Part shown: one piece after another, positions 35,052 through 64,000 of the stretch
How the letters are laid out: the number at the start of each line of letters is the position of its first letter
How positions within the stretch are numbered: position 1 is the stretch's first letter
Assembly (NCBI RefSeq): GCF_003991155.1
Contig: NZ_CP031293.1
Strand: one strand, 5' to 3'
Source of the DNA: Escherichia coli
GTDB taxonomy: Bacteria > Pseudomonadota > Gammaproteobacteria > Enterobacterales > Enterobacteriaceae
DNA length: 64,000 nt
Made by a program: the position numbers and the translations under genes
The notes under the pieces: generated by a model
What the model saw: the letters and a program-made list of their open reading frames with translations, nothing else
What the model was told of the DNA's origin: nothing
Database searches by the model: none

Positions 35052-35597
<546 letters not shown>

Positions 35598-43182: not shown

Positions 43183-43185
43183 CAT

Positions 43186-43987
43186 GACTCCTTGCTCATC
43201 GCATGAAGACTCCGAGAGTGAACCCCGTTAGAAAGGGTCACACGCATGCCCCAATACAAAATTATTTGCTCGCCTCTATCGTTGCCATTTCATCAAAAGA
43301 GGAAAAGACAATGATAAAAAAGTTACAAATATGTTAATGAATAAACCAAATTGATCCCGTAATTATATTACGCCGCAAAATCCTTACAATAAACAGGTTT
43401 TTATTGAGCAAATTTGCATTTTTCGACAGTGATCAATTTATAGCGAAATTGTCACGATCTCACCAATTTGATCTACGACAATTTATCGTGTTTTGCAGAT
43501 TTTTTTCAAGAATTAAAAATTGATTTATATCAAAACCAACCAAATATGTTAATTATGTATAAACCATAGATCATTGGTGATTTTATTGTTAATTTATTGT
43601 GAAATATTTATGCAACACAATTATTACAATGAAAAGGTATAGATAAAAAACCAGTGTTTTATTTAACAGAACCGCCTTATCCACTTTTTATAATACCAAT
43701 TGATTAGATTAGCCAATTTGTTGCTATTTTACATAACATATTTTTATCAAAGTTAATTGATTGTTGCCTTTATGAGCACCGGCCGTAAGCCCGTTATGTT
43801 ATTGTTTCATTAGTAATAATCACTTAAATGTATCGATGAAACAGGTATGACTTAGCGGGAGTGATTGTTTCTGAGTGAACAGAAACCACTTTCGCCTGAT
43901 AAATGAAAAATGAGCGATTTTTGCAAGTTAGTTTTTCTATAGCCGAGTACGCTCAGCGCCTCGCTTGATTACAATGAGGTTGCTGCT
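43186..43987. promoter_or_regulatory. Long AT-rich cydA upstream region / island junction
   Basis: About 800 bp with no ORF of 60 aa or more, visibly AT-rich; the cydAB promoters (FNR/ArcA-regulated in K-12) are expected here but individual sites were not resolved. Confidence 0.4.
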
Positions 43988-44932
43988 ATGAGTCCTGATA
44001 ATATCGGTTCGGCTGTCAATCGCTTCTCAGGTTGGCCATCTAATGATCCTCTAAAAACAGATAACGAATCAATGACATCACCCGTGACTGTGCAGGTAAT
44101 AAAGATGATTGCCGCCATCCTTGACCCATATCGGATAGTCGTTGGAATCGATACACTTTATACAACGCAGCGCGAAACATTTACCTCAGAGAGTCAACAG
44201 CTCATTGAATCAGCATTGCAAACACTTCATGTGATAAATTTAAATAACCTGGAAACAAATCTCGATGAGGACGGTCACTATCTGGCTTTTGGATATAACG
44301 TTGACACTCCTGACAGAATAACCGTTTCTGCTTATAATGAAAAAAAGCCTGGCTGCTATGGCCAATGTCTTTTAATACAGGATGACGAAACAGACTTATT
44401 TAACCTGATAAAAGTTAAAATTTTTGAAGCCAGGCATAATTATGTCGCTCAATTGATGAGCGATCCGGAATTTATGTTCAAATTTAGTTATAGCGCTCAA
44501 CAAAATAGATTAGAACCTCATCTTCTGGTTCCCACTTATTTCCCTCTAAAAACAAACGAACCGGTTACGCAAGAGGATGTACTGTTACTTTATCGTTTCT
44601 TTAAAATGGATGGTGATTTTAATATATTAACATCAGATGAATACATGAGTATCATGACACCTCTGATGAAGTGTGAGCGCAGCATCCACGACCACAACAG
44701 GTATGTGACGGGCAAAGATACCCTTCTTCTGGACTATCCTCCTTCTGGTAACCAGATATATTTCCATATTTTTCCTGACGAATCAGCAACACTAGTCCTT
44801 TATTTTTCAAACAATGACATTGAATGTTTCGTCTTTGAAAGAGATATTCCGAGCCAGTATCGCTTTTTCAAAATGTTTACCAATCTGGCACTGGTTATTG
44901 ATCAGTTAACCGATGCCAATCAAATACTTTAA
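43988..44932 (+). CDS. Hypothetical protein (314 aa), AT-rich, no recognised family
   Basis: ATG with gagg RBS about 9 nt upstream; contains internal YRFFKM repeat; low-GC codon usage. Confidence 0.6.
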   Translation: MSPDNIGSAVNRFSGWPSNDPLKTDNESMTSPVTVQVIKMIAAILDPYRIVVGIDTLYTTQRETFTSESQQLIESALQTLHVINLNNLETNLDEDGHYLAFGYNVDTPDRITVSAYNEKKPGCYGQCLLIQDDETDLFNLIKVKIFEARHNYVAQLMSDPEFMFKFSYSAQQNRLEPHLLVPTYFPLKTNEPVTQEDVLLLYRFFKMDGDFNILTSDEYMSIMTPLMKCERSIHDHNRYVTGKDTLLLDYPPSGNQIYFHIFPDESATLVLYFSNNDIECFVFERDIPSQYRFFKMFTNLALVIDQLTDANQIL

Positions 44933-45012
44933 TTTTTATATATTCCCTGTGGCAAATATTGCTAAACAATGCCCGGGGATTAATTTTTATTACTCACGGA
45001 AAGATTTAAATA

Positions 45013-45435
45013 ATGATCCCATCTCAAATCTCTTTCAACACCCTTCCTGTCAATGCAACATACGCTTCAGAGACAACAGTTGACACACAAAAATTCTCTG
45101 ACATCCTCTACTCAGCGGGGTGTTCCCTAAAGGATCTGGCTTATCTGAGCAGATGTCTGGCATCAATACATCCGACTATCGCCAAAAACATTTATGAAAC
45201 AGAAAATCTCAGCGATCAAAAATTACTACATATTGATTGCCGTAGTACAAATGAAATCAAGATAAATATCTTTTTTGGTCAACAACGAGAAGGATTAATT
45301 GAAATTAATTCTGACACTGTCATTTTTTCGATATTGTCTTCATTAATTGACTCCGCCATTTCTAAATTTCAACACCAAATCCCCGTTAACGGTTCAGTTA
45401 ATCGTGAACTATTGTATGAGGATTATACTGATTAA
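45013..45435 (+). CDS. Hypothetical protein (140 aa), AT-rich, no recognised family
   Basis: ATG start; Ser/Thr/Asn-rich N-terminus, acidic C-terminus; 80 bp downstream of previous ORF. Confidence 0.55.
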   Translation: MIPSQISFNTLPVNATYASETTVDTQKFSDILYSAGCSLKDLAYLSRCLASIHPTIAKNIYETENLSDQKLLHIDCRSTNEIKINIFFGQQREGLIEINSDTVIFSILSSLIDSAISKFQHQIPVNGSVNRELLYEDYTD

Positions 45436-45981
45436 ATCCACCCAGTCGCGAAAATGGCCTGCGTTATTGCCAGAGGTAATAAAACCTTTGATTAACGTTA
45501 CTCATACTGGTAGCACCTTCATGTACCTCTCTTTTTTACGAAAAATCAAAAGAGCTAACTAAGGTCATAATTCGCATGAATCATTAACCATTTGTTATTT
45601 TCAACATTATTTTTACATTAAGCAGAGATGAATTGCAGTGAAATTCGACTTAAATTTTATGAAATGCATTTACTCATGGCTAAACCCATATCACTAAAAT
45701 GCAAATTAGAAGTAGATCACAAATACCTCAATACACCAAATCAAGTTAATTTTAAAAATTTAACATTCATGACATTAGTTGACATAACACACTGAATTAA
45801 CATGAGAATTTAACAACATACTTTAAACAATCATTTCCCGAAAGACATTTTGAAAATAGATCAATTGCAACATTACGGTCAGATAAAGACACTCCTGTGA
45901 TATTAAACCTGTGCCGTTATGAACGGCCATAAATACGACGTGTGTAACTTATTTTACTCTCTGTCTTACAAAGGATTACCC

Positions 45982-46431
45982 ATGAAGAAAGCAACACTTG
46001 TGATTGGCGTTATTGGCGCGGACTGCCATGCAGTAGGCAATAAAGTTCTGGACCGCGTTTTTAGCAACCATGGCTTCAGAGTCATTAATCTGGGCGTAAT
46101 GGTCAGCCAGGACGAATATATTGATGCGGCCATTGAAACTGGCGCTGACGCGATTGTCGTCTCCTCTATCTATGGGCATGGCGATATCGACTGTCTGGGC
46201 ATGCGCGAACGCTGCATCGAGCGTGGACTGGGGGACATCCTGCTCTATGTGGGCGGTAACCTGGTGGTCGGAAAACATGACTTCGCTGACGTGGAAACCA
46301 AATTCAAAGAGATGGGATTTGATCGCGTCTTTGCCCCAAGTCATGACTTAGAAGATGTTTGTCAGCTGATGGCACACGATATCAACCAACGTCATGACGT
46401 TGATACTCGTATTCTTGAAGAGGCAATCTGA
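45982..46431 (+). CDS. Glutamate mutase sigma (S) subunit, B12-binding
   Basis: [24 protein letters not shown]: DxHxxG cobalamin-binding motif; strong similarity to clostridial GlmS/MutS; aagga RBS; ORF track start 45919 is an extension. Confidence 0.9.
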
Positions 46432-47819
46432 TGCAAATCGTCTCTGTCGATATTGGATCGACGTGGACCAAAGCAGCCCTCTTCGCCCGGGAGGGGGATG
46501 CGTTAACGTTGGTTAACCACGTACTGACCCCAACCACCACCCATCATCTGGCGAAGGGGTTTTTCTCCAGCCTGAACCTGGTGTTAAACGTAGATAATGC
46601 CCTCCCCCTGTTTAACAACGGTGAGGTTGCATTGAAGTATTCCTCCTCTGCCAAAGGTGGGCTGGCGGTTGCCGCAATGGGATTGGTGCCTTCTATCACC
46701 CTGGAAACCGCGAAAGTAACCGCTCACTCTGCGGGGGCTAAAATTGCGCAATATTACGCCTACAAGCTGAACCGCCGTGATATCCAGGCACTGGAAGAAA
46801 CGCAGCCCGATATTCTCTTGTTCACCGGCGGCACCGACGGCGGAGAAGAAAGCTACGGCCTGAATAACGCCCGTGTGCTGGCAGAATCCAAACTCGACTG
46901 CGCCATTATTTATGCCGGAAACCGGGATATTCAGGACGAGGTGCAGGAGATCCTAGGGCATAAAGACCTGACCATCGTCGACAACGTTCTGCCCGATCTT
47001 GACCATCCGAACCCTTTAGCTGCACGCCAGGCTATCTGCGACATATTCCTTAAACGCATCGTTAAAGGGAAAGGGCTGGATGTCGTTGTTGATAAAACAG
47101 GCGAAGAACCAATGCCGACACCGTGGACAGTCTTTGAACTGGTTAAGGCAATCAGTAATGTCGATCACAGCTGGAAAGAGTTCATGCTGATCGACATGGG
47201 TGGCGCAACCACCGATGTCTATTCCGCCTGTGCCAACACGCTCTCGCCCGACACCGTTTTACACGGCGTACCGGAACCCTTCGTGAAACGGACGGTGGAA
47301 GGCGATCTGGGAATGCGCGTCTCGGCAATGGTGGTTGGTGAAAGTGCGAAAGAGTTAGTCAATGTGAATTTTGCTCAGCAACCCGCACAGCTGGACGCTT
47401 TTTATCATTACCTCCGTCATCTAGTCGCTCATCCCGACTACTTACCCGCGAATGCAGAAGAAAAATATTTCGATACCGTCCTGGCCGGACTGTGTGTGGG
47501 TTATGCCACCGAAAGACATGCGGGCACCAAAAAAGAGGTCTGCACCTGCGTCGGCAATGTCGATTTACAGATGGGACGTGACCTGACAACCGTGCGTAAA
47601 GTCGTCGGATCCGGCGGATGGCTCTCGCGTGCCAGTCAGTTCGATATGCATCACTGGTTGAAATACCGCGAGTTAAACGACGACGGTAAACGCATTCTCT
47701 TACCGACCGAATTTGAATATTACCGCGATTCCCGGGGGCTATTACCACTGCTGGCAAACGTCGCCAGAGTCGATCCGCTGGCCGCCGCGCGCACCAGTAT
47801 TCAATGCTTAACCCTATAA
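46431..47819 (+). CDS. Glutamate mutase-associated protein L (MutL/GlmL-like, putative reactivase)
   Basis: 462 aa; start overlaps S-subunit stop (TGATG); position between S and E as in Clostridium. Confidence 0.8.
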   Translation: MQIVSVDIGSTWTKAALFAREGDALTLVNHVLTPTTTHHLAKGFFSSLNLVLNVDNALPLFNNGEVALKYSSSAKGGLAVAAMGLVPSITLETAKVTAHSAGAKIAQYYAYKLNRRDIQALEETQPDILLFTGGTDGGEESYGLNNARVLAESKLDCAIIYAGNRDIQDEVQEILGHKDLTIVDNVLPDLDHPNPLAARQAICDIFLKRIVKGKGLDVVVDKTGEEPMPTPWTVFELVKAISNVDHSWKEFMLIDMGGATTDVYSACANTLSPDTVLHGVPEPFVKRTVEGDLGMRVSAMVVGESAKELVNVNFAQQPAQLDAFYHYLRHLVAHPDYLPANAEEKYFDTVLAGLCVGYATERHAGTKKEVCTCVGNVDLQMGRDLTTVRKVVGSGGWLSRASQFDMHHWLKYRELNDDGKRILLPTEFEYYRDSRGLLPLLANVARVDPLAAARTSIQCLTL

Positions 47820-47837
47820 CAATTAAGGCTGCAATCA

Positions 47838-49283
47838 ATGGAACTTCGAAATAAGAAATTAACCCATGACGAATTCATGACCGAGCGGCAACAGGTACTG
47901 AAAACCTGGGAAACCGGCAAGGATGTTGAAAACTTTGAAGATGGCGTTAAATACCAACAAACCATTCCTGAGCATAAACGCTTCTCTCTTGCCCTGCTGA
48001 AAGCAGACAAGGAAGGTAAAACTCTTAGCCAACCGCGCGCAGGCGTGGCGCTGATGGACGAACACATCGAACTACTGAAAACACTACAAGAAGAGTGCGA
48101 TCTGCTGCCGAGCACCATCGATGCATATACCCGTCTGAATCGGTACGAAGAAGCGGCTGTAGGGATTAAAAAATCCATCGAAGCCGGAACCTCTAAACTG
48201 AACGGTTTACCGGTCGTTAACCACGGCGTCGCAGCTTGCCGTCGCCTCACCGAAACTCTGCAAAAACCGCTACAGATCCGCCACGGCACGCCAGATGCGC
48301 GTCTGCTGGCTGAAATCTCGATGGCCAGCGGCTTTACCAGTTATGAAGGCGGCGGCATTTCCTACAATATTCCGTATGCCAAGCGCGTAACGCTGGAAAA
48401 ATCGATCCGCGACTGGCAGTACTGCGACCGTTTAATGGGGATGTATGAAGAACACGGGATCCGCATCAACCGCGAACCGTTTGGCCCACTAACGGGTACC
48501 CTGATCCCGCCGTTTATCTCGCACTCTATCGCGATAATCGAAGGCTTGCTGGCGCTGGAACAGGGTGTGAAATCTATCACCGTTGGTTATGGACAGGTCG
48601 GCAGCCTGACGCAGGATGTTGCGGCGATCCAGTCTCTGCGTGAACTTGCACACGAATATTTTCAGAGCTATGGCTATACCGACTATGAATTAAGTACCGT
48701 GTTTCACCAGTGGATGGGCGGCTTTCCGGAAGACGAATCGAAAGCGTTCGCTATTATCTCCTGGGGCGCAGCCGTCGCGGGGATGTCTGGTGCCACCAAA
48801 GTCATCACCAAAAGTCCGCACGAAGCCTGGGGCATCCCGACTGCCGCTGCCAACATTCAGGGGCTGAAAGCCTCCCGCCAGATGCTCAACATGGTCAACG
48901 AGCAGAAATTCCCGCCGTGCCCTGCGGTTGAACTGGAAATTGAACTGATTAAGAGCGAGGTTCGCGCGGTACTGAATAAAGTGTTCGAACTGGGTAATGG
49001 TGATATTGCGCGCGGTACGGTGCTGGCATTTGAAGCGGGCGTACTGGATGTGCCGTTTGCGCCAGCCGCCTGCAACGCGGGCAAAATTCTTCCGGTCCGT
49101 GACAACACCGGCGCGATACGCGTACTGGAAGCCGGAGCCGTTCCATTGCCAAAAGATATTCTCGACCTCCACCACGATTACGTTGCGGAACGCGCACGCT
49201 TTGAAGGACGCCAACCGACATTCCAGATGGTTGTAGATGACATCAATGCTGTATCCCACAGTAAATTAATAGGAAGACCATAA
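47838..49283 (+). CDS. Glutamate mutase epsilon (E) catalytic subunit
   Basis: MELRNKKLTHDEFMTERQQVLKTWETGKDV closely matches clostridial GlmE/MutE N-terminus; 481 aa. Confidence 0.9.
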   Translation: MELRNKKLTHDEFMTERQQVLKTWETGKDVENFEDGVKYQQTIPEHKRFSLALLKADKEGKTLSQPRAGVALMDEHIELLKTLQEECDLLPSTIDAYTRLNRYEEAAVGIKKSIEAGTSKLNGLPVVNHGVAACRRLTETLQKPLQIRHGTPDARLLAEISMASGFTSYEGGGISYNIPYAKRVTLEKSIRDWQYCDRLMGMYEEHGIRINREPFGPLTGTLIPPFISHSIAIIEGLLALEQGVKSITVGYGQVGSLTQDVAAIQSLRELAHEYFQSYGYTDYELSTVFHQWMGGFPEDESKAFAIISWGAAVAGMSGATKVITKSPHEAWGIPTAAANIQGLKASRQMLNMVNEQKFPPCPAVELEIELIKSEVRAVLNKVFELGNGDIARGTVLAFEAGVLDVPFAPAACNAGKILPVRDNTGAIRVLEAGAVPLPKDILDLHHDYVAERARFEGRQPTFQMVVDDINAVSHSKLIGRP

Positions 49284-50524
49284 TGAAAATAAAACAGGCT
49301 CTGTTCACCGCTGGCTACTCCTCATTCTATTTCGATGACCAGCAGGCGATAAAAAACGGAGCGGGTCATGACGGCTTTTTTTATACCGGGGAGCCGGTAA
49401 CACAGGGGTTTAACGCCGTTCGTCAGGCCGGGGAGTGCGTATCAGTACAGTTGATTCTGGAAAACGGCTCGGTCGCCGTAGGTGACTGTGCTGCCGTACA
49501 GTATTCCGGGGCAGGTGGTCGCGATCCACTGTTCCTCGCTGAGCACTTTATTCCGTTCCTCAACGACCATATCAAGCCATTACTGGTAGGCCGCGATGTG
49601 GATGCTTTCCTGCCGAATGCCCGTTTCTTCGACAAATTGCGTATTGACGGCAACTTGCTGCATACCGCCGTGCGCTACGGATTATCACAGGCGCTGCTTG
49701 ATGCTACCGCGCTGGCAACCGGCCGTCTGAAAACTGAAGTAGTTTGCGATGAATGGCAGTTGCCACGCGTGGCGGAATCCATTCCATTATTTGGTCAGAG
49801 CGGGGACGATCGATATATCGCCGTCGATAAGATGATCCTTAAGGGCATCGACGTGCTGCCCCATGCACTGATTAATAACGTCGAAGAGAAACTGGGCTTT
49901 AAAGGTGAAAAACTGCGCGAATATGTCCGCTGGCTGTCGGATCGTATTCTGAGCAAGCGCACCAGCGCACGCTACCACCCTACCCTGCACATCGATGTAT
50001 ACGGCACTATCGGTCTGATCTTCGATATGGATCCGCTTCGCTGTGCGCAATACATCGCCAGCCTGGAAAAAGAAGCGCAAGGCCTGCCGCTCTACATTGA
50101 AGGGCCGGTCGATGCCGGTAACAAGCCCGATCAAATTCGCCTGCTGACCGCGATTACCAAAGAGCTGACGCGCCTCGGTTCCGGCGTGAAAATTGTGGCC
50201 GATGAATGGTGTAACACCTACCAGGATATTGTTGATTTCACTGATGCCGCCAGTTGTCACATGGTGCAAATCAAAACCCCGGATCTGGGCAGTATTCACA
50301 ACATCGTCGATGCGGTTCTTTACTGCAACAGCCACAGCATGGAAGCGTACCAGGGCGGCACCTGCAATGAAACTGATGTCAGTGCCCGCACCTGTGTCCA
50401 CGTCGCCCTTGCCGCTCGCCCTATGCGTATGCTGGTAAAGCCAGGGATGGGCTTTGACGAAGGCCTCGATATCGTCTTCAACGAAATGAATCGTACTATC
50501 GCGCTGTTGCAGGCTAAGGATTAA
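49283..50524 (+). CDS. 3-methylaspartate ammonia-lyase (beta-methylaspartase)
   Basis: MKIKQALFTAGYSSFYFDDQQAIKNGAGHDGF..DCAAVQYSGAGGRDPLF matches clostridial methylaspartase; start overlaps E-subunit stop. Confidence 0.92.
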   Translation: MKIKQALFTAGYSSFYFDDQQAIKNGAGHDGFFYTGEPVTQGFNAVRQAGECVSVQLILENGSVAVGDCAAVQYSGAGGRDPLFLAEHFIPFLNDHIKPLLVGRDVDAFLPNARFFDKLRIDGNLLHTAVRYGLSQALLDATALATGRLKTEVVCDEWQLPRVAESIPLFGQSGDDRYIAVDKMILKGIDVLPHALINNVEEKLGFKGEKLREYVRWLSDRILSKRTSARYHPTLHIDVYGTIGLIFDMDPLRCAQYIASLEKEAQGLPLYIEGPVDAGNKPDQIRLLTAITKELTRLGSGVKIVADEWCNTYQDIVDFTDAASCHMVQIKTPDLGSIHNIVDAVLYCNSHSMEAYQGGTCNETDVSARTCVHVALAARPMRMLVKPGMGFDEGLDIVFNEMNRTIALLQAKD

Positions 50525-50527
50525 CAA

Positions 50528-51898: not shown

Positions 51899-52212
51899 AA
51901 CAGTCAATTGTCTCACTGGCGCAAGTCATTCGTTCGAAAAATGCCGGACCTTACGAACTGGTTTTAGATATTTTATTTAAAACGAAAGAAAACTATGAGC
52001 GAGTTAAATCATCAGGGCAATTAACCCCAGAACTGATTGCGCGCTTATATCATGTTGAACCTGACTTTATTCACCGTATTGTCTGGTTTGATCCTTCTAA
52101 CGCAGTAAAAATCGTCATGCCACGAGATATTATCTCCGGGAATGTAGGTGACAATGATGTCTATGGTGCACAGCAACATGCACCTTTATTAAATATGAGT
52201 TTCGATTTGTAA
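51895..52212 (+). CDS. DUF4387-like small protein (usual partner of DUF1446)
   Basis: 105 aa; ATG overlaps upstream stop (ATGA); family assignment by recall. Confidence 0.6.
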   Translation: MKQSIVSLAQVIRSKNAGPYELVLDILFKTKENYERVKSSGQLTPELIARLYHVEPDFIHRIVWFDPSNAVKIVMPRDIISGNVGDNDVYGAQQHAPLLNMSFDL

Positions 52213-52372
52213 AAATCCGAATACTTTTAGCCAACTGACATCCCGTCACTTATTGCAGTTCAACACTTCAGCTATTTGTAAGGTTGTAATAGCAGGTAGA
52301 TGCCTGAATCTCTATTCAGGCATCTACTTCTCCTGATTCTGATTTATCGCCGTGCACCTGATGGAGGAAAAA

Positions 52373-55413: not shown

Positions 55414-55422
55414 GGAAAATGA

Positions 55423-56025: not shown

Positions 56026-56058
56026 TAACTGCGCCTGGCATCCCGCCAGGCGCAGGTT

Positions 56059-56964: not shown

Positions 56965-57002
56965 AATGCCTTCCCTTAAAAATAGTTGAAACTATCAAAA
57001 AA

Positions 57003-57026
57003 CCATTACTTATTGCTAAGTAATGG
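57003..57026. promoter_or_regulatory. Perfect inverted repeat, candidate operator upstream of LysR gene
   Basis: ccattacttattgctaagtaatgg (10-bp arms, 4-bp spacer) 40 bp upstream of LysR start; contains T-N11-A type LysR motif. Confidence 0.4.
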
Positions 57027-57234
57027 CAACCAAAGCAGCAATCAATATTTTATAAAAATCATGTTCGATATTTATAACCTGGTAAGCCTGGCGTGACAAT
57101 TGTCTCAATCAGACAATAATAATCCGAAAAGCAAAACGCCCTTCGGATTATTATGATTCAAGTTAAGTGAAGATTATTAAATTGATAGCAATTATCATAT
57201 CTATGGATATTATGACAAACAATCAACAAAAATT

Positions 57235-58905
57235 TTATTTTTGATTTATAGCATATCCTTCTAAGAATTTTTGCGAAGCTGCAATATCTGGGGTAAAGAC
57301 CCGATCCTGGTCGACAAACGGCACGACTTTTCTGTATTCGGTAAACATTGCTTTGGTGGATTTCCCTAATGCCAGTTGTGGATCGGCCTGCAACCGTAAA
57401 TCGAGAGCCTGTGCGGAATGCATCAGTTCAATGCCATAAATCACGTTCAGATTATCGACAACCTGTTTCAATCTTCTGGCCGCGTGGTCATTATTGGCAC
57501 CGGTATCTTCTATACCTCCGGCAACCGGTTGAATATCGAAAGAAACCGGGTTAGCGAGATCGACATTTTCCGCATGCAGCGCAACAAACGGGATATGTAA
57601 TGAACCGAAGCCATGACCTTTATTACCTGCTGCCGACAGGAAGCGTGACAAACCGGTAAAGTGATCATCTTCAAGATGCAGCGAGCGGCGCATACTGTTA
57701 TGTGAAACATGCACTAACGCCACGGTCAGACGCTGGGTGGCAAGCGCAACCGGTAACGATTCGAAATTCGCCGTCGGGAAGATCCCACCGCTGATTGCCC
57801 CATCTTTAACAAAATATTGCGCGACCTGACTGGAGTCCTGATACGCTTTGTCTGCATTCAGCACGGTTGCCGGGTTGTCATCGGAACTGTTGATCTGCAC
57901 GGTAATGGTATCTTCAGCATCGCGCAACGCGCGCATTGCCTCAGAAATGGTATACACCGTCGTTCTGAACGATAACGGATCCTGCAATGCACGTTTGTCA
58001 TGCTTATGCCATAAATAAGAACCACTTAACGCATCGCGAATCTCTTTAGCGGAATCAGCCAACTGCGGGAAAGGACGCACGGCGATCGACTGCGGCAGTA
58101 CCGGCGCGACATTGCCATTCAACGCTTCCAGACTCATAGCGAAAACCACCGGGCTGACATTCAGCAACTGACGTGCCGAACGAACAGCTTCGATAGCGTA
58201 GGCTGTCCCGACGCTGTTGTTCGATAAAATCGCCAGCATATCTTTACCCTGCGGTACCAGTGGCTTAAGTCCCACTTTCGCCAGCGCGTCACCACCGCTC
58301 ATTTGCACGCCATTTACTCGGGCTTTCCATTCCCCCATCATCACCAGACCAACGTGCGAAGCGAGCATAATATCCGCTGCGCCGATACTTCCCCGCACCG
58401 GAATTAACGGTGTAACGCCGCGATTAATAAATTCGGCATACAACTCGGCAATATAAGGCTGTGCGCCGGTTTGCCCATGCAGCATGGTATTTAAACGTAA
58501 TACCATTGAAAGGCGTGCCAGATAATCCGGTAACATCGGACCAACGCCCGCAGAATGGGCGCGCAGCGCGGCAGCATTAAATTTTTTCGACGCGTCAATC
58601 ACCTCAGGCGTTAAATTTCCTTTGGCATCAAATATGGGCTGATCTTTATTTAGCCCCACGCCCACGGTTAAGCCATAAACAGGCGTACCTGAATGCGCGG
58701 CAGTCATCACCAGATCATAACTTTTTTCCATGCGCTCCATGGCGTTCGACGCGATTTTGACGCCGTTATCACCTAATGCAATTGACCAGGCCTGGTCAAT
58801 GGAAAGATGTTCGCCATCCAGCGTAATGGTTGATTTCGCCATCGCAATGGAGCAAACGCTCCAGAGCACAACGGTGACAGTGACTCTTCGTATCAATCCT
58901 TTCAT
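57235..58905 (-). CDS. Histidine/aromatic ammonia-lyase family homolog with predicted signal peptide and disrupted MIO (Ala-Ser-Gly) motif
   Basis: 556 aa; aligns with HAL throughout (e.g. GEWKARVNG.., LSNNSVGTAYA) but has GSIGAADIMLASH where HAL has GSVGASGDLAPLAH; N-terminus MKGLIRRVTVTVVLWSVCSIAMA-KS is Sec-signal-like; aagga RBS 6 nt upstream. Confidence 0.8.
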   Translation of the reverse strand: MKGLIRRVTVTVVLWSVCSIAMAKSTITLDGEHLSIDQAWSIALGDNGVKIASNAMERMEKSYDLVMTAAHSGTPVYGLTVGVGLNKDQPIFDAKGNLTPEVIDASKKFNAAALRAHSAGVGPMLPDYLARLSMVLRLNTMLHGQTGAQPYIAELYAEFINRGVTPLIPVRGSIGAADIMLASHVGLVMMGEWKARVNGVQMSGGDALAKVGLKPLVPQGKDMLAILSNNSVGTAYAIEAVRSARQLLNVSPVVFAMSLEALNGNVAPVLPQSIAVRPFPQLADSAKEIRDALSGSYLWHKHDKRALQDPLSFRTTVYTISEAMRALRDAEDTITVQINSSDDNPATVLNADKAYQDSSQVAQYFVKDGAISGGIFPTANFESLPVALATQRLTVALVHVSHNSMRRSLHLEDDHFTGLSRFLSAAGNKGHGFGSLHIPFVALHAENVDLANPVSFDIQPVAGGIEDTGANNDHAARRLKQVVDNLNVIYGIELMHSAQALDLRLQADPQLALGKSTKAMFTEYRKVVPFVDQDRVFTPDIAASQKFLEGYAINQK

Positions 58906-58955
58906 TGTGTTTCCTTATCATGATGAGTTTAACAACGGGTTACTGCGACAACGTT

Positions 58956-59906
58956 TTAATTTGTTCTATCTGTTTTCCCCCGCCGGACAATACTGGTCAC
59001 CAGGCGAGCGGCAACTTTCGCAGTTAAATTATCGCGGTCCAGGTCCGGGTTAAGTTCGGCAATATCCGCAGCAATCAACTTCTCGCTACCGGCGATTAAA
59101 TTCACAATGGCTTCAGTAATATTTAACGGCACGCCTAACGGTGATGGAGCAGAAACACCGGGCGCCTGATAACCTGGTAAAACATCGAGACAAATCGTTA
59201 AATAAATGGCGTCACAAGCCTGAATATCTGCCGAGAGCGCATTAGCGATCTCATGCAAACCACGTTCAAATTGCAGAGATTCGTCCAGCCAATAACGCAC
59301 ACCGAGACAATCAGCGCGATCAAATAACGCCTGAGTATTGGCAAAACGACTTATTCCCAGCACGCGATAATGAAACGGTTTGCCATGCTGCGCGTTCCAC
59401 TCTTGCATCTGACGAAACGGCGTACCTGAATTGGCTTGTTCCGCCATCCGTAAATCAAAATGCGCGTCAAGGTTCACAATCAGTAACCGCTGAATATCCG
59501 GACGCGACTGCATAATCCCCTGAAATGTTCCCCACGCCACTTCATGACCGCCCCCCAGAACCACCGGTAAACTGCCGCGCGCAATGGCTGTAGATACGTT
59601 AGCCGCCAGACGATTTTGTGCGGATTCCAGCGCGTGGTCCTCGCTTTGTACATCGCCCATATCGAAAATAGCGCCTTCACAGAGCACTGGCATATTTCCC
59701 AACATGCTGCGCAACGCGCCCGGTCCGCCTGCTGCACCCGCTCGCCCATCATTACGTTGCACTCCGTCATCAACGGCAAAACCAATCAGCGTACAACCGC
59801 CGTGGCTTTGTTCACTAAACGGTTGCACATGCTGATGCCAGCGAGTGCTGATGCCGGTTTCCTGCGAGTCAACACGCCCACTCCACGGCAAAAATGTTTG
59901 CTTCAT
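58956..59906 (-). CDS. hutG: Formimidoylglutamase (arginase family)
   Basis: Start at MKQTFLPWSGRVD (ATG overlapping hutI stop); arginase-fold metal-binding motifs (LDAHFD). Confidence 0.8.
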   Translation of the reverse strand: MKQTFLPWSGRVDSQETGISTRWHQHVQPFSEQSHGGCTLIGFAVDDGVQRNDGRAGAAGGPGALRSMLGNMPVLCEGAIFDMGDVQSEDHALESAQNRLAANVSTAIARGSLPVVLGGGHEVAWGTFQGIMQSRPDIQRLLIVNLDAHFDLRMAEQANSGTPFRQMQEWNAQHGKPFHYRVLGISRFANTQALFDRADCLGVRYWLDESLQFERGLHEIANALSADIQACDAIYLTICLDVLPGYQAPGVSAPSPLGVPLNITEAIVNLIAGSEKLIAADIAELNPDLDRDNLTAKVAARLVTSIVRRGKTDRTN

Positions 59907-61117
59907 TACCAACTCCTTTTTCCGCCGACAATAAGCCCCTGGCAAGGCTGATGCCCAAACCAGTAAGCCAGTTCACGTGGATGATTAAGATCCCAGACCG
60001 CCATATCCGCCCGTAATCCCGGTGCAAGTTCACCCCGGTCAATAAGTCCAAGTGCCTTTGCCGCATTACGCGTAACGCCCTGAACGGCTTCCAGCGGCGT
60101 CATGCGAAACAGCGTACAGGCCATATTGATCATCAATGGCAATGACATATTGGGAGACGTTCCGGGATTATGGTCCGTGGAGATAGCAATCGGCACACCT
60201 GCGGCCCGCAGAGCGACAATCGGCGGCAGATGGGTTTCGCGCAGGAAGTAATAAGCACCGGGAAGCAAAACCGCCACTGTTCCAGCCGCTTTCATGGCGG
60301 CGATCCCCGACTCGCTCAGGTACTCCAGATGATCGCAGGAGAGTGCAGAAAACGCCGCTGCCAGCGCCGCGCCTTGCTGGTCAGAAAGCTGTTCGGCATG
60401 CAGTTTTACAGGTAATCCATAGCTTTGCGCTTTACTGAAAACGCGCCGTACCTGCTCTGGAGTAAAGGCGATGTTTTCACAAAAAGCATCAACTGCATCA
60501 ATCAGCCCCTGTTCATGCAACACGCACATCCAGTCGCAAAGCGCCGTAATGTAATCATCACTGCGCCCGGCAAACTCTGGCGGCAGGCTGTGCGCCCCGA
60601 GAAACGTAGACTGAATATGTAACCCGGTAGATTGCTGCAAGCGGCGGATCACGCGTAAACAACGTGCTTCATCTTCCAGCGTTAAGCCATAACCCGATTT
60701 GATTTCAAGCGTACTGACGCCTTCACGTTGCCAGTTTCGCAGTCGCTGCGCCGCCAGTTCAAACAACTGTGTTTCGCTGGCTGCCCGCGTGGCATTAACC
60801 GTAGATAAGATCCCGCCGCCCGCTCTGGCGATATCTTCATAAGCCACGCCTTGCAACCGCATCTCAAACTCGTTCGCCCTCTGGCCGCCATACACCAGAT
60901 GTGTATGACAATCCACCAGACCGGGTGTCAGCAACTTACCCTGTAGATCGTGTTCCTCTGTAATATCAGCCGTCAGTTCACGGGGGATCTGCGTGGCCTT
61001 CCCAAGCCAGACAATCGAGTCACCACGGCTGATTAATGCCCCCTTTTCAATCACTCCCCAATCGTTAGCGGAAAGCGTCGCCAGCGTGGTATTTCGCCAG
61101 AGCGTTAATGCACTCAT
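59906..61117 (-). CDS. hutI: Imidazolonepropionase
   Basis: Amidohydrolase HxH motif (CHTHLVYGG); ATG at 61117 overlaps hutD stop (ATGA); alternative GTG start at 61150. Confidence 0.85.
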   Translation of the reverse strand: MSALTLWRNTTLATLSANDWGVIEKGALISRGDSIVWLGKATQIPRELTADITEEHDLQGKLLTPGLVDCHTHLVYGGQRANEFEMRLQGVAYEDIARAGGGILSTVNATRAASETQLFELAAQRLRNWQREGVSTLEIKSGYGLTLEDEARCLRVIRRLQQSTGLHIQSTFLGAHSLPPEFAGRSDDYITALCDWMCVLHEQGLIDAVDAFCENIAFTPEQVRRVFSKAQSYGLPVKLHAEQLSDQQGAALAAAFSALSCDHLEYLSESGIAAMKAAGTVAVLLPGAYYFLRETHLPPIVALRAAGVPIAISTDHNPGTSPNMSLPLMINMACTLFRMTPLEAVQGVTRNAAKALGLIDRGELAPGLRADMAVWDLNHPRELAYWFGHQPCQGLIVGGKRSW

Positions 61118-61704
61118 AAGGATTTTTCCCCTCGTAGATAATAAAGCCACCAGCCCGCCAGCTCACCGACGGAGACTTTCTTCCGTGGTACGAAACGCCA
61201 GGGCCTGCCATCAGGTGCAACCAGCCATAACAACATATTTGCCGCGACAAACACCCTTTTCTTGCCGCTTATCCACTCCCCTTCACACAGCGTGAACAGG
61301 CCCGCTTGCGCAAGTGACGGAGGACGCCAGTCAACGGCACTTTGCACCCGCAACATCCCCGCATCGCCTTCCCGCGCCATAACATTCAGATCGCGAACCC
61401 CGCCGCCCAGCAGCTGGCAATCAGGCATAGCTTCTCCAGGGAAAATTAAGGCGGGATCGTGACGTTGCAGGTTGATGATCGAATCGGCAAACGTTAGCTT
61501 CACCCCTTCCCCGTCGAGAATCGCGAGGCCACGAACCACGCCAGGCCACGCTGAAAAAGAGCCATCCTGACTGACATTCGCCATACTGATGCGCAACAAC
61601 CAGTTTTCATCATCGGGCCAGGCAAGCAGCTGTCGGGTAAACCCCCCGCCGTTGCGCCACGGTTGCAGCGGCTTATCCATTGCAGAAATCAGCATCGGTT
61701 CCAT
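61114..61704 (-). CDS. hutD: HutD-family protein
   Basis: 196 aa with WRNGGGFTRQL motif typical of HutD/Ves family. Confidence 0.75.
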   Translation of the reverse strand: MEPMLISAMDKPLQPWRNGGGFTRQLLAWPDDENWLLRISMANVSQDGSFSAWPGVVRGLAILDGEGVKLTFADSIINLQRHDPALIFPGEAMPDCQLLGGGVRDLNVMAREGDAGMLRVQSAVDWRPPSLAQAGLFTLCEGEWISGKKRVFVAANMLLWLVAPDGRPWRFVPRKKVSVGELAGWWLYYLRGEKSL

Positions 61705-61705
61705 A

Positions 61706-63115
61706 TTAAGACTCGGGATAAATCGTATAAGCAGGAACGCAGGTGGTGCGTTTGGCCCACGGGTAATAGATAACGGCGGTAATTAACAAGCCGACAATCC
61801 AGGAGATATCCGCCCCATCCATCAGGACAGAAATGGGTCCCTGATACAGTTTTTGATTCAGGAAGGGGATCTGCACCAACACGCCTACGCCATAGCACGT
61901 CAAAGCGGTTTTGTTATACGCGCCATAACGCCCTTCCGGGGTATAAAGTGCCGGAATATCGGTTTTACCTTGTGAGATGAAGTAGTAGTCGATGAGATTA
62001 ATGGCGCTCCACGGCACAAATACCGTCAACAGCAGCAGAACGAAGTTTTTGAAATTATTCAAAAAATCTGCGCTTGCCGCCAGCGCGACGACCATCGACA
62101 ACAGCACGAACCCTACAACGTAGGCAGCACGAACACGCTGTGAAACCTGACTGCGATTATTAAAGGCGCTGACGGTCGCCAGAATCGACATAAAGCCACC
62201 GTAGGCATTCAAACAGTTCACCGTCAGTTTGCCGCAAACAATCACCGTATAAATCAGAATGGCGAAGGTGGGTCCGGCTAACTCACCCATAAAACCAACC
62301 TGATCCTTCAGGAAGTTAGCACCACAGGCCGCAACAAGCACGCCAAACGTCATGGCACATTGCGCGCCAAGCGTGGTTCCCAGAAAGGTGGCAAAGAAGA
62401 TTGATTTTGCTGGCGTATCAGAGGGTAAATAGCGGGAATAATCAGAGGCGTAAGGGGCAAACGTTAATTGCCATCCGGCAGAGAGAGCAATCGTTAATAA
62501 AAAGACCGACAGACTAAATGGCTTTTGACCAAATGCCGCAGCCACATCGTAGTGACCGCTAAGTTGAGTGGCCAGGTAAATAAACCCCAGAATACTTAAT
62601 ATCCCTGCAACACGGCCAACGACGTGAATAAGTTTATAACCGACCAATGCGATCATCGCGGTCAGCATGCCGAAAATAATAATTCCGGTCGATGCCGATT
62701 CGAAACCAAATATCCGGTTAATCGCCTGACCGGATAATACTGTACCCGTCGCGGCAAATCCAAGGTACATAATAATCACCATCAGTAACGGTAGCGCCGC
62801 TCCTTTAACGCCAAAGCGGATACGACTGGAGATCATCTGGGGTAATCCCAGCTTTGCCCCCTGCGACGAGTGCAATGCCATTACTGCACCACCAATAATA
62901 TTACCGATTAATAAACCAATTATTGCTGACATGGCTTCGGAGCCAAAAATAATCGCTAACGCGCCGTCCACCACAGCGGTAATTTGTAAGTTAGCACTTA
63001 GCCATAAAGTAAACTGACTGGATGGCGAGCCGTGGCGAGCAGACTCAGGAACGGCGTTAATCGTATTTGATTCTAATACTGGCTTTTTACTGCGGATAGG
63101 GCTGCTTGATTCCAT
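61706..63115 (-). CDS. NCS1-family (nucleobase/hydantoin-type cation symporter) permease
   Basis: 469 aa from ATG 63115 preceded by aggag RBS; ORF track TTG start at 63160 rejected. Confidence 0.8.
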   Translation of the reverse strand: MESSSPIRSKKPVLESNTINAVPESARHGSPSSQFTLWLSANLQITAVVDGALAIIFGSEAMSAIIGLLIGNIIGGAVMALHSSQGAKLGLPQMISSRIRFGVKGAALPLLMVIIMYLGFAATGTVLSGQAINRIFGFESASTGIIIFGMLTAMIALVGYKLIHVVGRVAGILSILGFIYLATQLSGHYDVAAAFGQKPFSLSVFLLTIALSAGWQLTFAPYASDYSRYLPSDTPAKSIFFATFLGTTLGAQCAMTFGVLVAACGANFLKDQVGFMGELAGPTFAILIYTVIVCGKLTVNCLNAYGGFMSILATVSAFNNRSQVSQRVRAAYVVGFVLLSMVVALAASADFLNNFKNFVLLLLTVFVPWSAINLIDYYFISQGKTDIPALYTPEGRYGAYNKTALTCYGVGVLVQIPFLNQKLYQGPISVLMDGADISWIVGLLITAVIYYPWAKRTTCVPAYTIYPES

Positions 63116-63278
63116 GAAAAAGTCTCCTGCAAAATGAGAGGTCATTTTTTGAAACAGCAATAGAGGGTCGGGAGATATTTCTCTCGACGATGTAAAAATA
63201 TTTTTTGATAATTATTGTTATACAGGCGAATTATTCTCCGCCTGTATTAGCGCAAATATTAAATGACGGCGTTAATAT

Positions 63279-64000
63279 TTAGCGAATCATCGGTAATTTC
63301 AGACCATAGTTTTTGGCACATTCAATTGCCGCTTCATAACCCGCATCCGCATGACGCATAACCCCGGACGCACAGTCATTCACCAGCACACGCGCCAGAC
63401 GTTTTTCGGCTTCTTCGCTACCATCGGCAACAATAACCATCCCGGCGTGTTGTGAATACCCCATCCCGACGCCGCCGCCATGATGCAGGGATACCCACGT
63501 TGCTCCCCCTGCAGTGTTGAGCAAACCGTTGAGCAACGGCCAGTCAGAAACCGCATCACTGCCATCAAGCATGCTTTCGGTTTCGCGGTTCGGGCTGGCG
63601 ACAGAACCGGTATCAAGATGATCGCGCCCAATCACAATCGGTGCTTTTAGTTCACCGTTGCGCACCATTTCGTTGAATGCCAGCCCCGCCAGGTGACGCT
63701 CACCAAGCCCCAGCCAGCAAATACGTGAAGGAAGTCCCTGGAAGGCAATGCGCTCGCGCGCCATATCCAGCCAGCGATGCGTCAGTACGTTATTGGGGAA
63801 CAACTCTTTAATTTTGGCATCAGTTTTATAGATATCTTCCGGGTCGCCAGACAGCGCCACCCAACGGAATGGACCTTTGCCTTCACAAAACATTGGACGA
63901 ATATAAGCCGGAACAAAGCCCGGGAAATCAAAGGCATTTTGCAGACCTTCGTTGAAGGCCACCTGGCGGATGTTGTTGCCATAATCGACAACCGGGATCC
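63279..64000 (-). CDS. hutU: Urocanate hydratase (urocanase), C-terminal part; 5' end beyond window
   Basis: Translation ..[26 protein letters not shown].. matches urocanase C-terminal region; reading frame continues to window end. Confidence 0.85.

Follow-up and report, generated by a model that had tools for sequence, protein, structure and literature searches.

What occupies the interval between cydA and sucD in an E. coli genome without mngRAB at this locus, and was it gained by this lineage or inherited? The question was raised by a 64,000-nucleotide stretch of DNA (the window), which the original prediction described as carrying a three-module accessory region in place of mngRAB. Positions 1-43558, from within uvrB to 373 bp upstream of cydA, are collinear with K-12, as that prediction held. 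Beyond cydA, the predicted gene content and coordinates were confirmed and mngRAB is absent from the window: a hypothetical gene pair in AT-rich DNA (+) is followed by a methylaspartate cluster (+), a LysR gene (-) and, from 57235 to the window end, a cluster in the order lyase-hutG-hutI-hutD-NCS1-hutU (-) (Table 1). The far boundary does lie outside the window: in the 100%-identical genome of strain 2016C-3878 it is formed by hutU-rtcB-sucD about 3 kb further on, with hutU ending at window-equivalent position 64976, rtcB at 65734-67131 and the rtcB stop codon abutting sdhX/sucD. The phylogroup F reference strain IAI39 has the full arrangement as in the window, and CE10 also has the hut module.

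Table 1. Features of the cydA-sucD interval in the window (strand: +, - or unassigned [.]).
Feature	Coordinates	Strand	Basis or remark
cydA	41614-43182	-	left anchor of variable interval; annotated in 100%-identical genome
cydA upstream region	43183-43823	.	conserved; common to K-12 up to 43558
AT-rich putative replacement segment with ORFan pair	43824-45575	+	1.75 kb; GC; alignments to outgroup spacers
hyp314	43988-44932	+	Escherichia-restricted ORFan, 314 aa
hyp140	45013-45435	+	ORFan, 140 aa; E. coli/Shigella only
glmS upstream region	45576-45981	.	conserved among Escherichia species
glmS	45982-46431	+	B12-dependent glutamate (methylaspartate) mutase with glmE; RefSeq annotation
glmL	46431-47819	+	mutase reactivase; RefSeq annotation
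glmE	47838-49283	+	B12-dependent glutamate (methylaspartate) mutase with glmS; RefSeq annotation
methylaspartate ammonia-lyase (MAL)	49283-50524	+	annotation, orthologs
cmlA (AtuA family)	50528-51898	+	citramalate lyase; PDB 9erq/9evf match
cmlB (DUF4387)	51895-52212	+	citramalate lyase; PDB 9erq/9evf match
dicarboxylate/amino acid:cation symporter (GltP/DctA-like)	52373-53653	+	annotation; NCBIfam matches under equivalog cut-offs
fumD, class I fumarase/mesaconase	53761-55413	+	NCBIfam NF011921, 1286 bits vs 1060 cut-off
cobO, corrinoid adenosyltransferase	55423-56025	+	glmS-to-cobO cluster, 45982-56025
strong terminator-like hairpin	56029-56055	+	3' of cobO
GcvA-like LysR regulator	56059-56964	-	
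terminator-like hairpin	57002-57027	-	11 pairs and T run; downstream of lyase gene
MIO-less lyase	57235-58905	-	probable ergothionase/histidine-betaine trimethylammonia-lyase family, 556 aa
hutG formimidoylglutamase	58956-59906	-	NCBIfam equivalog, 293 bits vs 229 cut-off
hutI imidazolonepropionase	59906-61117	-	NCBIfam equivalog, 451 bits vs 298 cut-off
HutD/Ves family protein	61114-61695	-	
NCS1-family permease	61706-63115	-	annotated 'cytosine permease'; predicted urocanate importer
hutU urocanate hydratase, 3' part	63279-64000	-	TIGR01228; gene runs off window

CydA is 99-100% identical at the amino acid level across all Escherichia loci, and the region upstream of its gene is also common to B2 E. 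coli, E. whittamii and Escherichia sp. E1V33 until about 43823-43828, where all three share the breakpoint ...GTAATAATCAC. Positions 43186-64000 contain zero tRNA or Rfam matches and no annotated integrase or IS, and repeats at the cydA-proximal boundary amount to short imperfect matches of a type flagged by the tool as often due to chance, in agreement with what was first noted there. Strain 2016C-3878 carries one additional IS1 that is absent from the window. The GC content of the methylaspartate and hut modules is mostly near that of flanking core genes, with local lows of 0.38-0.49 near the symporter gene and in the LysR-lyase spacer, while the hypothetical pair stands out in the profile at 0.34-0.38 versus about 0.51-0.55 in its neighbours.

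The 1.75-kb segment that holds this pair has a GC content of 0.35. Its place is taken by about 320 bp of unrelated spacer in E. whittamii and E1V33 and by mngBAR in Citrobacter sedlakii, and its flanks showed nothing beyond short imperfect repeat matches, often chance according to the tool. Searches of NCBIfam, Pfam, PADLOC and PHROG gave no match to hyp314, its matches among 1.84 billion representative proteins are fragments of hyp314 only, and its AlphaFold2 single-sequence model (pLDDT 35) is unusable; its dN/dS is 0.4-0.6. For hyp140, a dN/dS of about 0.1 indicates purifying selection. Judged by composition and alignment, the ORFan pair alone looks like an Escherichia-specific replacement of later date; the other modules look older, and the three blocks, although all are present, have differing histories.

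Of 5,426 complete E. coli genomes, 3,864 carry mngRAB, 1,117 (21%) the methylaspartate block and 143-144 (2.6%) the hut block. This patchiness, together with the AT-rich pair next to cydA, the IS1 of the sister genome and the complete lack of relics of either module in K-12-type genomes, is what one would expect of an island gained horizontally by this lineage at the expense of mngRAB. We consider such a gain quite improbable, since the same genes occupy the same locus elsewhere. The synteny cydA-[glmS...LysR]-sucD recurs, at 80-94% amino acid identity, in E. whittamii, the Escherichia spp. E1V33 and MOD1-EC7003, Salmonella arizonae/diarizonae, many Citrobacter, the Klebsiella oxytoca group and Pseudescherichia, and E. 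albertii has the order sucD-hutU-NCS1-hutD-hutI-hutG-lyase-LysR-fumD...glmL. Further evidence against acquisition comes from deletion relics in five other lineages. E. marmotae retains an rtcB relic and a deletion fusion of hutU (aa 1-203) to the lyase (aa 62-556), and fragments of lyase, hutU and rtcB persist in E. whittamii and E1V33. O157-type genomes keep the last 137 nt of the lyase gene (to window position 57372), a 62-nt internal piece of it and 57 nt of rtcB, the two-piece lyase relic being found in about 838 genomes, and in B2 E. coli a 72-nt glmS relic abuts a 66-nt hutU relic. Divergence is deep and graded with phylogeny (nucleotide identity of 98-99% with O157, 84-92% with other species of Escherichia and 75-84% with other genera; E. 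coli versus E. albertii dS of 0.5-1.0 in both modules, with dN/dS of 0.01-0.13); the outgroup copies are not near-identical and hence are not recent transfers from E. coli. The core-like GC of both modules and the lack of an integrase, tRNA or meaningful repeat also argue against an acquired island.

It is therefore very probable that the block is ancestral and was differentially lost, although ancient transfer among Escherichia species may have contributed. The cydA-sucD interval would be an old mosaic that eroded differently in each lineage, with the methylaspartate cluster as a long-standing resident in the Escherichia/Salmonella/Citrobacter/Klebsiella group and the hutU-NCS1-hutD-hutI-hutG-lyase module, with rtcB beside sucD, already joined to this cluster in the ancestor of all Escherichia. 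Both modules would have been retained intact in the window and IAI39, O157-type genomes would have lost hut and rtcB by deletion, B2 genomes would have deleted from within glmS to within hutU, and K-12-type genomes carry only mngRAB. Residence of both modules, as opposed to acquisition by this lineage, would account for the lack of visible mobility machinery. Of the originally predicted accessory region, the three blocks, their variability within E. coli and the missing mngRAB thus stand, whereas acquisition does not apply to the methylaspartate and hut modules; apart from the ORFan pair, the arrangement is very probably in essence the ancestral state in Escherichia. Simple deletion is demonstrated for O157 and B2 but, strictly speaking, not for K-12, because K-12 has no relics and its mngBAR position is not derivable by deletions alone: in Citrobacter mngBAR sits closer to cydA than the glm cluster does, but in E. 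coli A34 and B2 it sits closer to sucD than rtcB/TPR does, so that deletion by itself does not account for all forms. With classical genomic islands, which are tRNA-linked and carry an integrase and direct repeats, the locus shares variable presence in the species and one AT-rich segment; unlike them, it has none of those three hallmarks, outgroups have the same genes at the same site, and variation here arises mainly from deletions.

Judged by its sequence, the methylaspartate module is the known O157:H7 methylaspartate (mesaconate) cluster with FumD, with no functional difference: gene order is identical, amino acid identity is 98-100%, and GlmS/L/E, MAL, FumD, the CmlA/CmlB orthologs, CobO and LysR are all present. 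The O157 FumD enzyme has been characterised (Kronen & Berg 2015, PMC4682846). CmlA and CmlB match PDB 9erq/9evf 'Citramalate lyase subunit A/B' (E 2.8e-292 and 5e-57), and the Raoultella planticola Cml converts citramalate to pyruvate and acetate (bioRxiv 10.64898/2026.01.16.699985). The symporter is a probable glutamate or C4/C5-dicarboxylate carrier, going by its family matches. A core of 30-80 bp in the glmS upstream region (45825-45906) is kept out to Salmonella, Klebsiella and Citrobacter, glmS, glmL and glmE have orthologs across genera (dN/dS 0.01-0.14), and the LysR gene accompanies the cluster in every genus examined.

Canonical enterobacterial and pseudomonad hut operons comprise hutUH, hutIG and hutC, with HutD and a urocanate permease in Pseudomonas; in Salmonella and Klebsiella the operon lies near bio/gal. 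Like these, the module in the window has HutD and bona fide HutU, HutI and HutG, i.e. the four-step formimidoylglutamase route. Unlike these, it is positioned beside sucD, lacks MIO-dependent HutH and any dedicated regulator (HutC), and begins with a MIO-less enzyme that is predicted to be exported. The earlier label 'hut-like' thus fits HutU, HutI and HutG but not the lyase, which is no histidase. RefSeq names its gene hutH in some genomes, and with canonical HutU, HutI and HutG at hand and the imidazole- and carboxylate-binding residues kept, one could posit an ordinary histidine-utilisation operon in which a merely divergent HutH deaminates L-histidine to urocanate. This is highly unlikely: against the hutH model the lyase reaches 281 bits, half the cut-off of 539; its 'GSIGAADIM' aligns to HAL 'GSVGASGDL', without the Ala-Ser-Gly (MIO) triad and in a loop one residue shorter, like that of ergothionase; the triad is missing in all 120 closest homologs; and MIO is needed for ammonia elimination in every characterised family member.

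The lyase is instead very probably, by sequence and fold, a member of the MIO-less trimethylammonia-lyase family. Its closest solved relative is the ergothionase of Treponema denticola (TdETL, PDB 6s7j), which is also MIO-triad-free, both by sequence (E 5.5e-85 versus 1e-49 for HAL) and by fold (Foldseek E 1e-33, target TM 0.91). Ergothionase also belongs to the Burkholderia ergothioneine pathway, and its activity has reportedly been seen in E. coli (Wolff, 1962). According to a 2026 paper no ergothionase homolog is known in this species, which makes the lyase gene, full-length in 144 of the 5,426 genomes and with no second paralog in any of the 5,426, the only candidate for a true ergothionase converting ergothioneine to thiourocanate and trimethylamine. 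The ergothionase Lys is, moreover, carried by most family members. In the lyase, however, the site of TdETL Lys384, reported as essential for thiolate binding, is occupied by Ile438 (Ile/Val forms make up a single clade); HutU fits urocanase models (TIGR01228, 934 bits versus a cut-off of 375) and falls under the cut-offs of thiourocanate hydratase models; and neither desulfhydrase nor hydantoinase genes are present. A true ergothionase is thus unlikely.

Another parallel is offered by Shewanella woodyi Swoo_3913, a histidine betaine trimethylammonia-lyase, and by S. oneidensis SO_3299/SO_3057 (Bertsova et al., bioRxiv 2025/2026). These belong, as the lyase does, to the MIO-less branch of the aromatic amino acid lyase fold, and they share with it an export signal at the N-terminus, the catalytic Tyr, the His/Glu/Gln/Arg/Asn ligands in almost identical numbering (Tyr77, His117, Gln308, Arg314, Asn339 and Glu466 being the counterparts of residues listed for the Shewanella enzyme) and a neutral residue in place of the ergothionase Lys. 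That residue is Ile here (Val in relatives), in a separate clade, versus Asn or Gln in Shewanella. The signal-peptide-like N-terminus, judged by eye, has a predicted cleavage site after AMA23 and its own Shine-Dalgarno, and is kept in E. albertii as well as an 85%-identical ortholog; NCBI also annotates a 535-aa form starting at Met22. In an unrelated contig the NCS1 permease gene also adjoins the 85%-identical lyase, while the closest Val-type relatives (Enterococcus; a Pseudomonas-like contig) do not adjoin hut genes. Since SO_3299, with Gln at the site, cleaves the N-pi-methyl derivative of histidine betaine and not histidine betaine itself, the missing Lys does not fix the substrate, and we predict histidine betaine only tentatively, at somewhat less than even odds. 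Because the partner genes encode a permease and assimilatory HutU/I/G, unlike the periplasmic urocanate reductase or flavocytochrome c of Shewanella, the product would be assimilated and not respired.

In the route that we propose, the Sec-exported lyase would act in the periplasm on histidine betaine (hercynine), splitting it into trimethylamine and urocanate; the NCS1 permease would import the urocanate, and HutU, HutI and HutG would convert it to L-glutamate and formamide. Glutamate would then yield pyruvate, acetate and ammonia through glutamate mutase (GlmSE with GlmL, CobO providing adenosylcobalamin), methylaspartate ammonia-lyase, FumD mesaconase and CmlAB citramalate lyase. Repeated loss across lineages, the stop codon and frameshifts in lyase, hutI, NCS1, cobO and symporter of E. 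albertii, and the finding that the complete pathway was not demonstrable in vivo in O157 (Kronen & Berg 2015, PMC4682846) could be taken to mean that the block is a decaying remnant without present function in E. coli. We give this little credence, as both the window and IAI39 carry every gene at full length and dN/dS is 0.01-0.13, within E. coli and between species. An ancestral, eroded block encoding a predicted histidine-betaine-to-pyruvate/acetate route is the reading that we favour, with a probability of roughly two in three.

For the methylaspartate cluster, our analysis adds its evolutionary placement as a cydA-sucD resident in several genera and the observation that, in Escherichia, it is physically joined to a module expected to make its substrate, glutamate. 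What is new is the 'HAL-like' gene, whose product is predicted to liberate trimethylamine from histidine betaine and not ammonia from histidine.

The window and K-12 are collinear from within uvrB as far as 373 bp upstream of cydA, and the three blocks of gene content that the original prediction placed beyond cydA are borne out by their genes and coordinates: an AT-rich pair of hypothetical genes (hyp314 and hyp140), a methylaspartate (glm) block and a hut-like cluster whose first enzyme is a HAL-like protein of 556 residues, hereafter the lyase. The far boundary, correctly placed outside the window, could be located in strain 2016C-3878 (locus L001), which is 100% identical to the window except for one IS1 present in the strain only. 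The block ends there in an RtcB-family gene that abuts sdhX/sucD, its stop codon falling where the sdhX sRNA region, which follows sucD, has its 3' end; sdhX itself was not detected as a family in the Rfam scan. In the encoded protein the RtcB domain is confined to residues 214-464 and scores under all curated cut-offs, and there is no prfH or rtcA partner near the gene.

Features of the interval between cydA and sucD and of its surroundings (window coordinates unless stated otherwise)
Feature	Position	Strand	Remark
lysT-valT tRNA cluster	33386-34086		seven genes
CpoB/ybgF RNA thermometer	35013-35151		between pal and cpoB; Rfam match, 142 bits
Hypothetical gene hyp314	43988-44932
Hypothetical gene hyp140	45013-45435
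Site of the IS1 of 2016C-3878	45395-45404		inside hyp140
Conserved core upstream of glmS	45825-45906
glmS, glmL, glmE, methylaspartate ammonia-lyase, AtuA-family, DUF4387, DAACS symporter, class I fumarase and cobO genes	45982-56025
LysR gene	56059-56964		convergent
Lyase gene	57235-58905	minus	encodes the first enzyme of the hut module
hutG, hutI, hutD, NCS1 permease gene, hutU		minus	hutU runs off the window
RtcB-family gene (465 aa)	65734-67131 (window-equivalent); L001 37512-38909		just beyond the window

Some smaller features of these sequences can be recorded here. The IS1 of 2016C-3878 (L001 16406-17172) is an insert of ~768 bp which, with a 9-10 bp target duplication, makes 777 bp of extra sequence and cuts off the last codons of hyp140 in that strain; the window therefore stems from a sister genome free of this IS1. 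The lysT-valT cluster has seven genes, as many as in K-12 though with different spacers, and the O157 locus has six; copy number and spacing differ among strains. The core upstream of glmS is kept across E. coli, Salmonella, Klebsiella, Citrobacter and Pseudescherichia, and may be where the LysR regulator binds. Rfam gave no matches in the region, either in the window or in the sister locus, and no riboswitch upstream of glmS; a promoter and terminator scan returned counts not above those of shuffled sequence, two strong hairpins alone being noteworthy.

The original prediction read the block as an accessory region replacing the mngRAB neighbourhood of K-12. We scanned one genome per species with the methylaspartate ammonia-lyase and mapped all module proteins onto the resulting 80 loci. 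The arrangement cydA-[glmS...LysR]-sucD is found in E. whittamii, in Escherichia spp. E1V33 and MOD1-EC7003, in Salmonella enterica subsp. arizonae and diarizonae, in many Citrobacter, in the Klebsiella oxytoca group and in Pseudescherichia vulneris, with 80-97% amino acid identity at these loci outside E. coli. The hut module is shared within the genus: E. marmotae and E. albertii have lyase orthologs (94-96% amino acid identity), and E. albertii contigs read sucD-hutU-NCS1-hutD-hutI-hutG-lyase-LysR-fumD...glmL. E. marmotae carries an rtcB relic and a fusion of hutU (residues 1-203) to the lyase (62-556), the product of a 5-kb deletion, while E. whittamii and E1V33 retain fragments of the lyase gene, hutU and rtcB; of rtcB, a relic remains in O157 too. 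Identity to the window at the nucleotide level tracks phylogeny, declining stepwise from 98-99% in O157 to 84-92% in other Escherichia species and 75-84% in other genera. In the comparison of E. coli with E. albertii, both modules give dS values of 0.5-1.0, and dN/dS is 0.01-0.13. Given these same-locus outgroups, the graded identity and the substitution rates, the methylaspartate module is most probably an old resident of the cydA-sucD interval, which the hut module and rtcB appear to have joined by the time of the Escherichia ancestor.

Decay is visible in E. albertii (L092, L093), where one strain has TGA as codon 3 of its lyase gene; hutI or the NCS1 permease gene is frameshifted, cobO is fragmented and the symporter gene has a frameshift. 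The last two genes are likewise missing or in pieces in E. whittamii, E1V33 and E. marmotae.

An island acquired by E. coli fits these data poorly. Modules 2 and 3, i.e. the methylaspartate and hut blocks, occupy this locus, whole or as relics, in other Escherichia species and in other genera. Their GC content, mostly 0.48-0.57, resembles that of the flanking core genes, with dips to 0.43-0.49 near the symporter gene and 0.38-0.45 in the LysR-lyase spacer; the expected AT richness holds for the hypothetical pair (0.34-0.38) and its Escherichia-restricted 1.75-kb ORFan segment (0.35), the one part of atypical composition. As the original prediction had noted for the cydA-proximal boundary, no integrase or transposase gene and no tRNA or other attachment site lies in 43186-64000 or onward to sucD, judging from annotation and the Rfam scan, and the repeat scan found no direct or inverted repeats flanking the ORFan segment beyond short imperfect matches of a kind the tool flags as often due to chance. 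The missing mobility genes are what one would expect, since the interval varies mostly through gene loss and less through gain. The accessory reading is supported only in part: the interval varies within E. coli, but its second and third modules are shared with outgroups, and an ancestral state across Escherichia, with K-12 as the deletion variant, is what the prediction had named as its own refutation. The direction of inference is reversed, and K-12 is the depleted form at this locus.

Across 5,426 complete E. coli genomes the interval occurs in at least five layouts, with mngRAB in 3,864, the methylaspartate block in 1,117 and the hut block in 143-144. K-12 reads sucD-mngR-mngA-mngB-cydA; the O157 type contains nothing beyond the hypothetical pair, the methylaspartate block and LysR; B2 strains have a TPR gene alone or mngRAB plus the TPR gene; and strain A34 combines the hypothetical pair, a truncated methylaspartate block, rtcB and mngBAR in a single interval. 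The full layout is that of the window and IAI39, and CE10 has at least the hut module; IAI39 and CE10 are phylogroup F reference strains. In the O157 type, homology extends over the last 137 nt of the lyase gene; next come an internal piece of that gene (62 nt) and, before sucD, 57 nt of rtcB. This two-piece lyase relic occurs in ~838 genomes. In B2, remnants of glmS (72 nt) and hutU (66 nt) stand directly side by side, and after them comes a diverged copy of the hutU-rtcB spacer. The shorter O157-type and B2 forms are, to judge by these remnants, deletion derivatives.

Deletion does not account for everything. The K-12 mngB-cydA spacer (L002 9613-10090) contains no glm, hut or rtcB relics; 471 bp of it occur in no other layout and consist of a REP/BIME element inserted after the mngB stop codon, ahead of an mngB terminator that has its ortholog in Citrobacter. 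Citrobacter has mngBAR in the space from cydA to glmS, and in E. coli A34 and B2 it lies on the sucD side of rtcB or the TPR gene with a different 3' flank; mng alleles diverge by up to 8%. The slot adjoining sucD also varies by lineage. It holds rtcB in most E. coli that retain rtcB, the TPR gene in B2, an ORF of 258 aa with a signal-peptide-like start in E. albertii (L092 2184-2960), and, between LysR and sucD, an AraC-type regulator gene in Salmonella and Citrobacter (S. arizonae L041 18090-18992; C. werkmanii L024 17277-18949). On these comparisons, recombination between haplotypes must have contributed as well. With respect to the slot genes themselves, the B2 TPR-repeat gene (L085 11657-12850; L004 17513-18628) is a pseudogene in HM670, and the E. 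albertii ORF was considered as a homolog of RtcB or of the TPR protein and is unrelated to both. The N-terminal half of the AraC-type regulator reads, by eye, as PocR-like, and C. werkmanii has an extra 262-aa ORF in the slot that resembles uroporphyrinogen methyltransferase; the two may provide extra regulation or B12-related functions for the methylaspartate cluster.

Within E. coli, the lyase-hutG segment falls into two deep allele classes (window 57235-59906 versus the comparison allele L098). The lyase gene of most hut-carrying genomes is just 94.6% identical to that of the window, and dS in the segment is 0.23-0.43 versus 0.04-0.13 in neighbouring genes, which suggests old recombination or balanced alleles.

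The hypothetical pair has a history of its own. E. whittamii and E1V33 match the window up to ~43823-43828 and again from 45576, with ~320 unrelated bases in between, and B2 homology stops at the same point. Given these shared flanks and the common breakpoint, the 1.75-kb AT-rich segment probably arose by replacement in E. coli and its nearest relatives alone; in MOD1-EC7003 the copy is degraded. The two genes have no matches in NCBIfam, Pfam, PADLOC or PHROGs, and exhaustive phmmer and word-indexed searches returned Escherichia/Shigella copies only; both proteins are ORFans. Their dS equals that of their neighbours; dN/dS is ~0.1 for hyp140, indicating purifying selection, and 0.4-0.6 for hyp314, indicating relaxed constraint. 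A single-sequence AlphaFold2 model of hyp314 reached a pLDDT of 35, too low to be used.

The function of the methylaspartate module is already known. By annotation and orthology, glutamate mutase S and E, its reactivase, methylaspartate ammonia-lyase, mesaconase and citramalate lyase are encoded together. FumD scores 1286 bits against NF011921 (cut-off 1060), and the O157 enzyme has been characterised as a mesaconase/fumarase (PMC4682846); for the AtuA/DUF4387 pair the match is PDB 9erq/9evf, 'citramalate lyase subunits A and B' (CmlA/CmlB). GlmS/E/L, methylaspartate ammonia-lyase, FumD, CmlAB and CobO together provide every step between glutamate and pyruvate, acetate and ammonia.

The hut module differs from a conventional one in its first enzyme. 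A MIO-dependent histidase was considered and rejected: the lyase scores 281 bits against the HutH model TIGR01225 (cut-off 539), and it lacks the Ala-Ser-Gly triad, reading GSIGAA-DIM versus GSVGASGDL in P. putida HAL, with a MIO-region loop one residue shorter; the triad is also missing in all 120 closest homologs. Among solved structures the lyase is closest to the ergothionase of Treponema denticola (6s7j; phmmer E 5.5e-85, versus 1e-49 for HAL), and its AlphaFold2 model (pLDDT 86) has 6s7j as the top Foldseek match (E 1e-33, target TM 0.91). We therefore place it, from sequence and model, as a predicted member of the MIO-less trimethylammonia-lyase family. The lyase has Tyr77, His117, Gln308, Arg314, Asn339 and Glu466, none of which varies across an alignment of 30 sequences; in these enzymes Tyr is the catalytic base, His and Glu bind imidazole, and Gln, Arg and Asn bind the carboxylate. 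All listed ligands of the Shewanella woodyi histidine betaine trimethylammonia-lyase are kept in the lyase with nearly the same numbering.

As to the substrate, Ile438 of the lyase aligns with the thiolate-binding Lys384 of TdETL, which argues against ergothioneine and sets the lyase apart from strict ergothionases. Lys occupies this position in 103 of 122 aligned family sequences, and the Ile/Val forms, to which the E. coli clade belongs, are a single clade inside an otherwise Lys-carrying family. The S. woodyi enzyme (Swoo_3913) has Asn439 there; both residues are neutral, but they differ, and specificity is not fixed by this position. Among related enzymes without the Lys, SO_3299 favours a substrate that is N-pi-methylated (Bertsova et al., bioRxiv 2025/2026), and Val-type relatives in Enterococcus do not adjoin hut genes; this preference and these contexts weigh against certainty in histidine betaine, which we infer as the substrate.

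The partners of the lyase point the same way as Ile438. HutU (934 versus 375 bits), HutI (451 versus 298) and HutG (293 versus 229) pass the equivalog cut-offs of the hut pathway, which leads from urocanate to glutamate by the formimidoylglutamase route, whereas on the models for thiourocanate hydratase (cut-off 930) and S-methyl-thiourocanate hydratase (880) HutU reaches only 670-672 bits. Of a strict ergothionase one would expect coupling to thiourocanate-processing enzymes, but the hydratase adjacent to the lyase is of urocanase type. S. woodyi-type lyases are partnered by a periplasmic urocanate reductase or flavocytochrome c; here the partners are an NCS1 permease, HutD, HutI, HutG and HutU. 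By inspection, the lyase N-terminus (MKGLIRRVTVTVVLWSVCSIAMA, followed by K) has the n-, h- and c-regions of a Sec signal and its own Shine-Dalgarno sequence; it is conserved in E. albertii and in an 85%-identical ortholog and is a low-confidence helix in the AlphaFold2 model. The contig with this ortholog (L088 1886-5377) has it directly beside the gene of an NCS1 permease of 85% identity and away from any hut genes, and permease and lyase may form a mobile functional unit. A second lyase, exported and of the Lys (ergothionase-like) type, occurs in E. albertii and a few drafts labelled E. coli/Shigella (L096 8001-13312), next to genes for a FAD-binding reductase and multihaem cytochromes c and beside CDI toxin/immunity genes; none of the 5,426 complete E. 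coli genomes has this lyase and flavocytochrome cluster.

Histidine betaine, or hercynine, is a dietary or fungal compound and also a product of ergothioneine oxidation. The lyase, presumably exported, would cleave it in the periplasm to urocanate and trimethylamine, the NCS1 permease would take up the urocanate, and HutU/I/G would convert it to glutamate, the substrate of the adjacent methylaspartate module; these three steps are the most economical reading of the gene content. Taken as a whole, the proposal is tentative, and we put its probability at about 0.4: that 144 of 5,426 complete E. coli genomes (IAI39, CE10 and the window's lineage) together with E. albertii carry a contiguous 21-kb route from histidine betaine to pyruvate and acetate, with periplasmic trimethylamine release by a new Ile/Val subclass of lyase, NCS1 uptake, HutU/I/G and a B12-dependent methylaspartate pathway with CmlAB, and hence are gut trimethylamine producers not recognised before and hold the only candidate for the ergothionase-type activity reported for E. 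coli in 1962.

Most of the block is already known (the methylaspartate cluster) or ordinary (differential gene loss), and the enzyme kind itself is recently recognised; what is new here is the lyase-hut combination, of which no earlier description in E. coli was found in the literature searched. E. coli genes annotated as a 'hut operon' have as their first enzyme not a histidase but, by sequence and fold, a member of the recently recognised family that cleaves trimethylamine from histidine betaines. A 2026 paper considers the 1962 report of ergothionase in E. coli questionable, with 'no ergothionase homologs' in the species (PMC13405746). The lyase, the sole ergothionase homolog found in the 5,426 complete genomes, is a concrete candidate gene for that activity. 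The arrangement suggests that in Escherichia a glutamate-fermentation cluster was ancestrally coupled to a glutamate-making module. Trimethylamine from gut bacteria is the precursor of TMAO, and phylogroup F includes extraintestinal pathogenic E. coli. If true, the proposed route would represent a lineage-restricted source of trimethylamine in E. coli, relevant to work on the microbiome and cardiometabolic disease.
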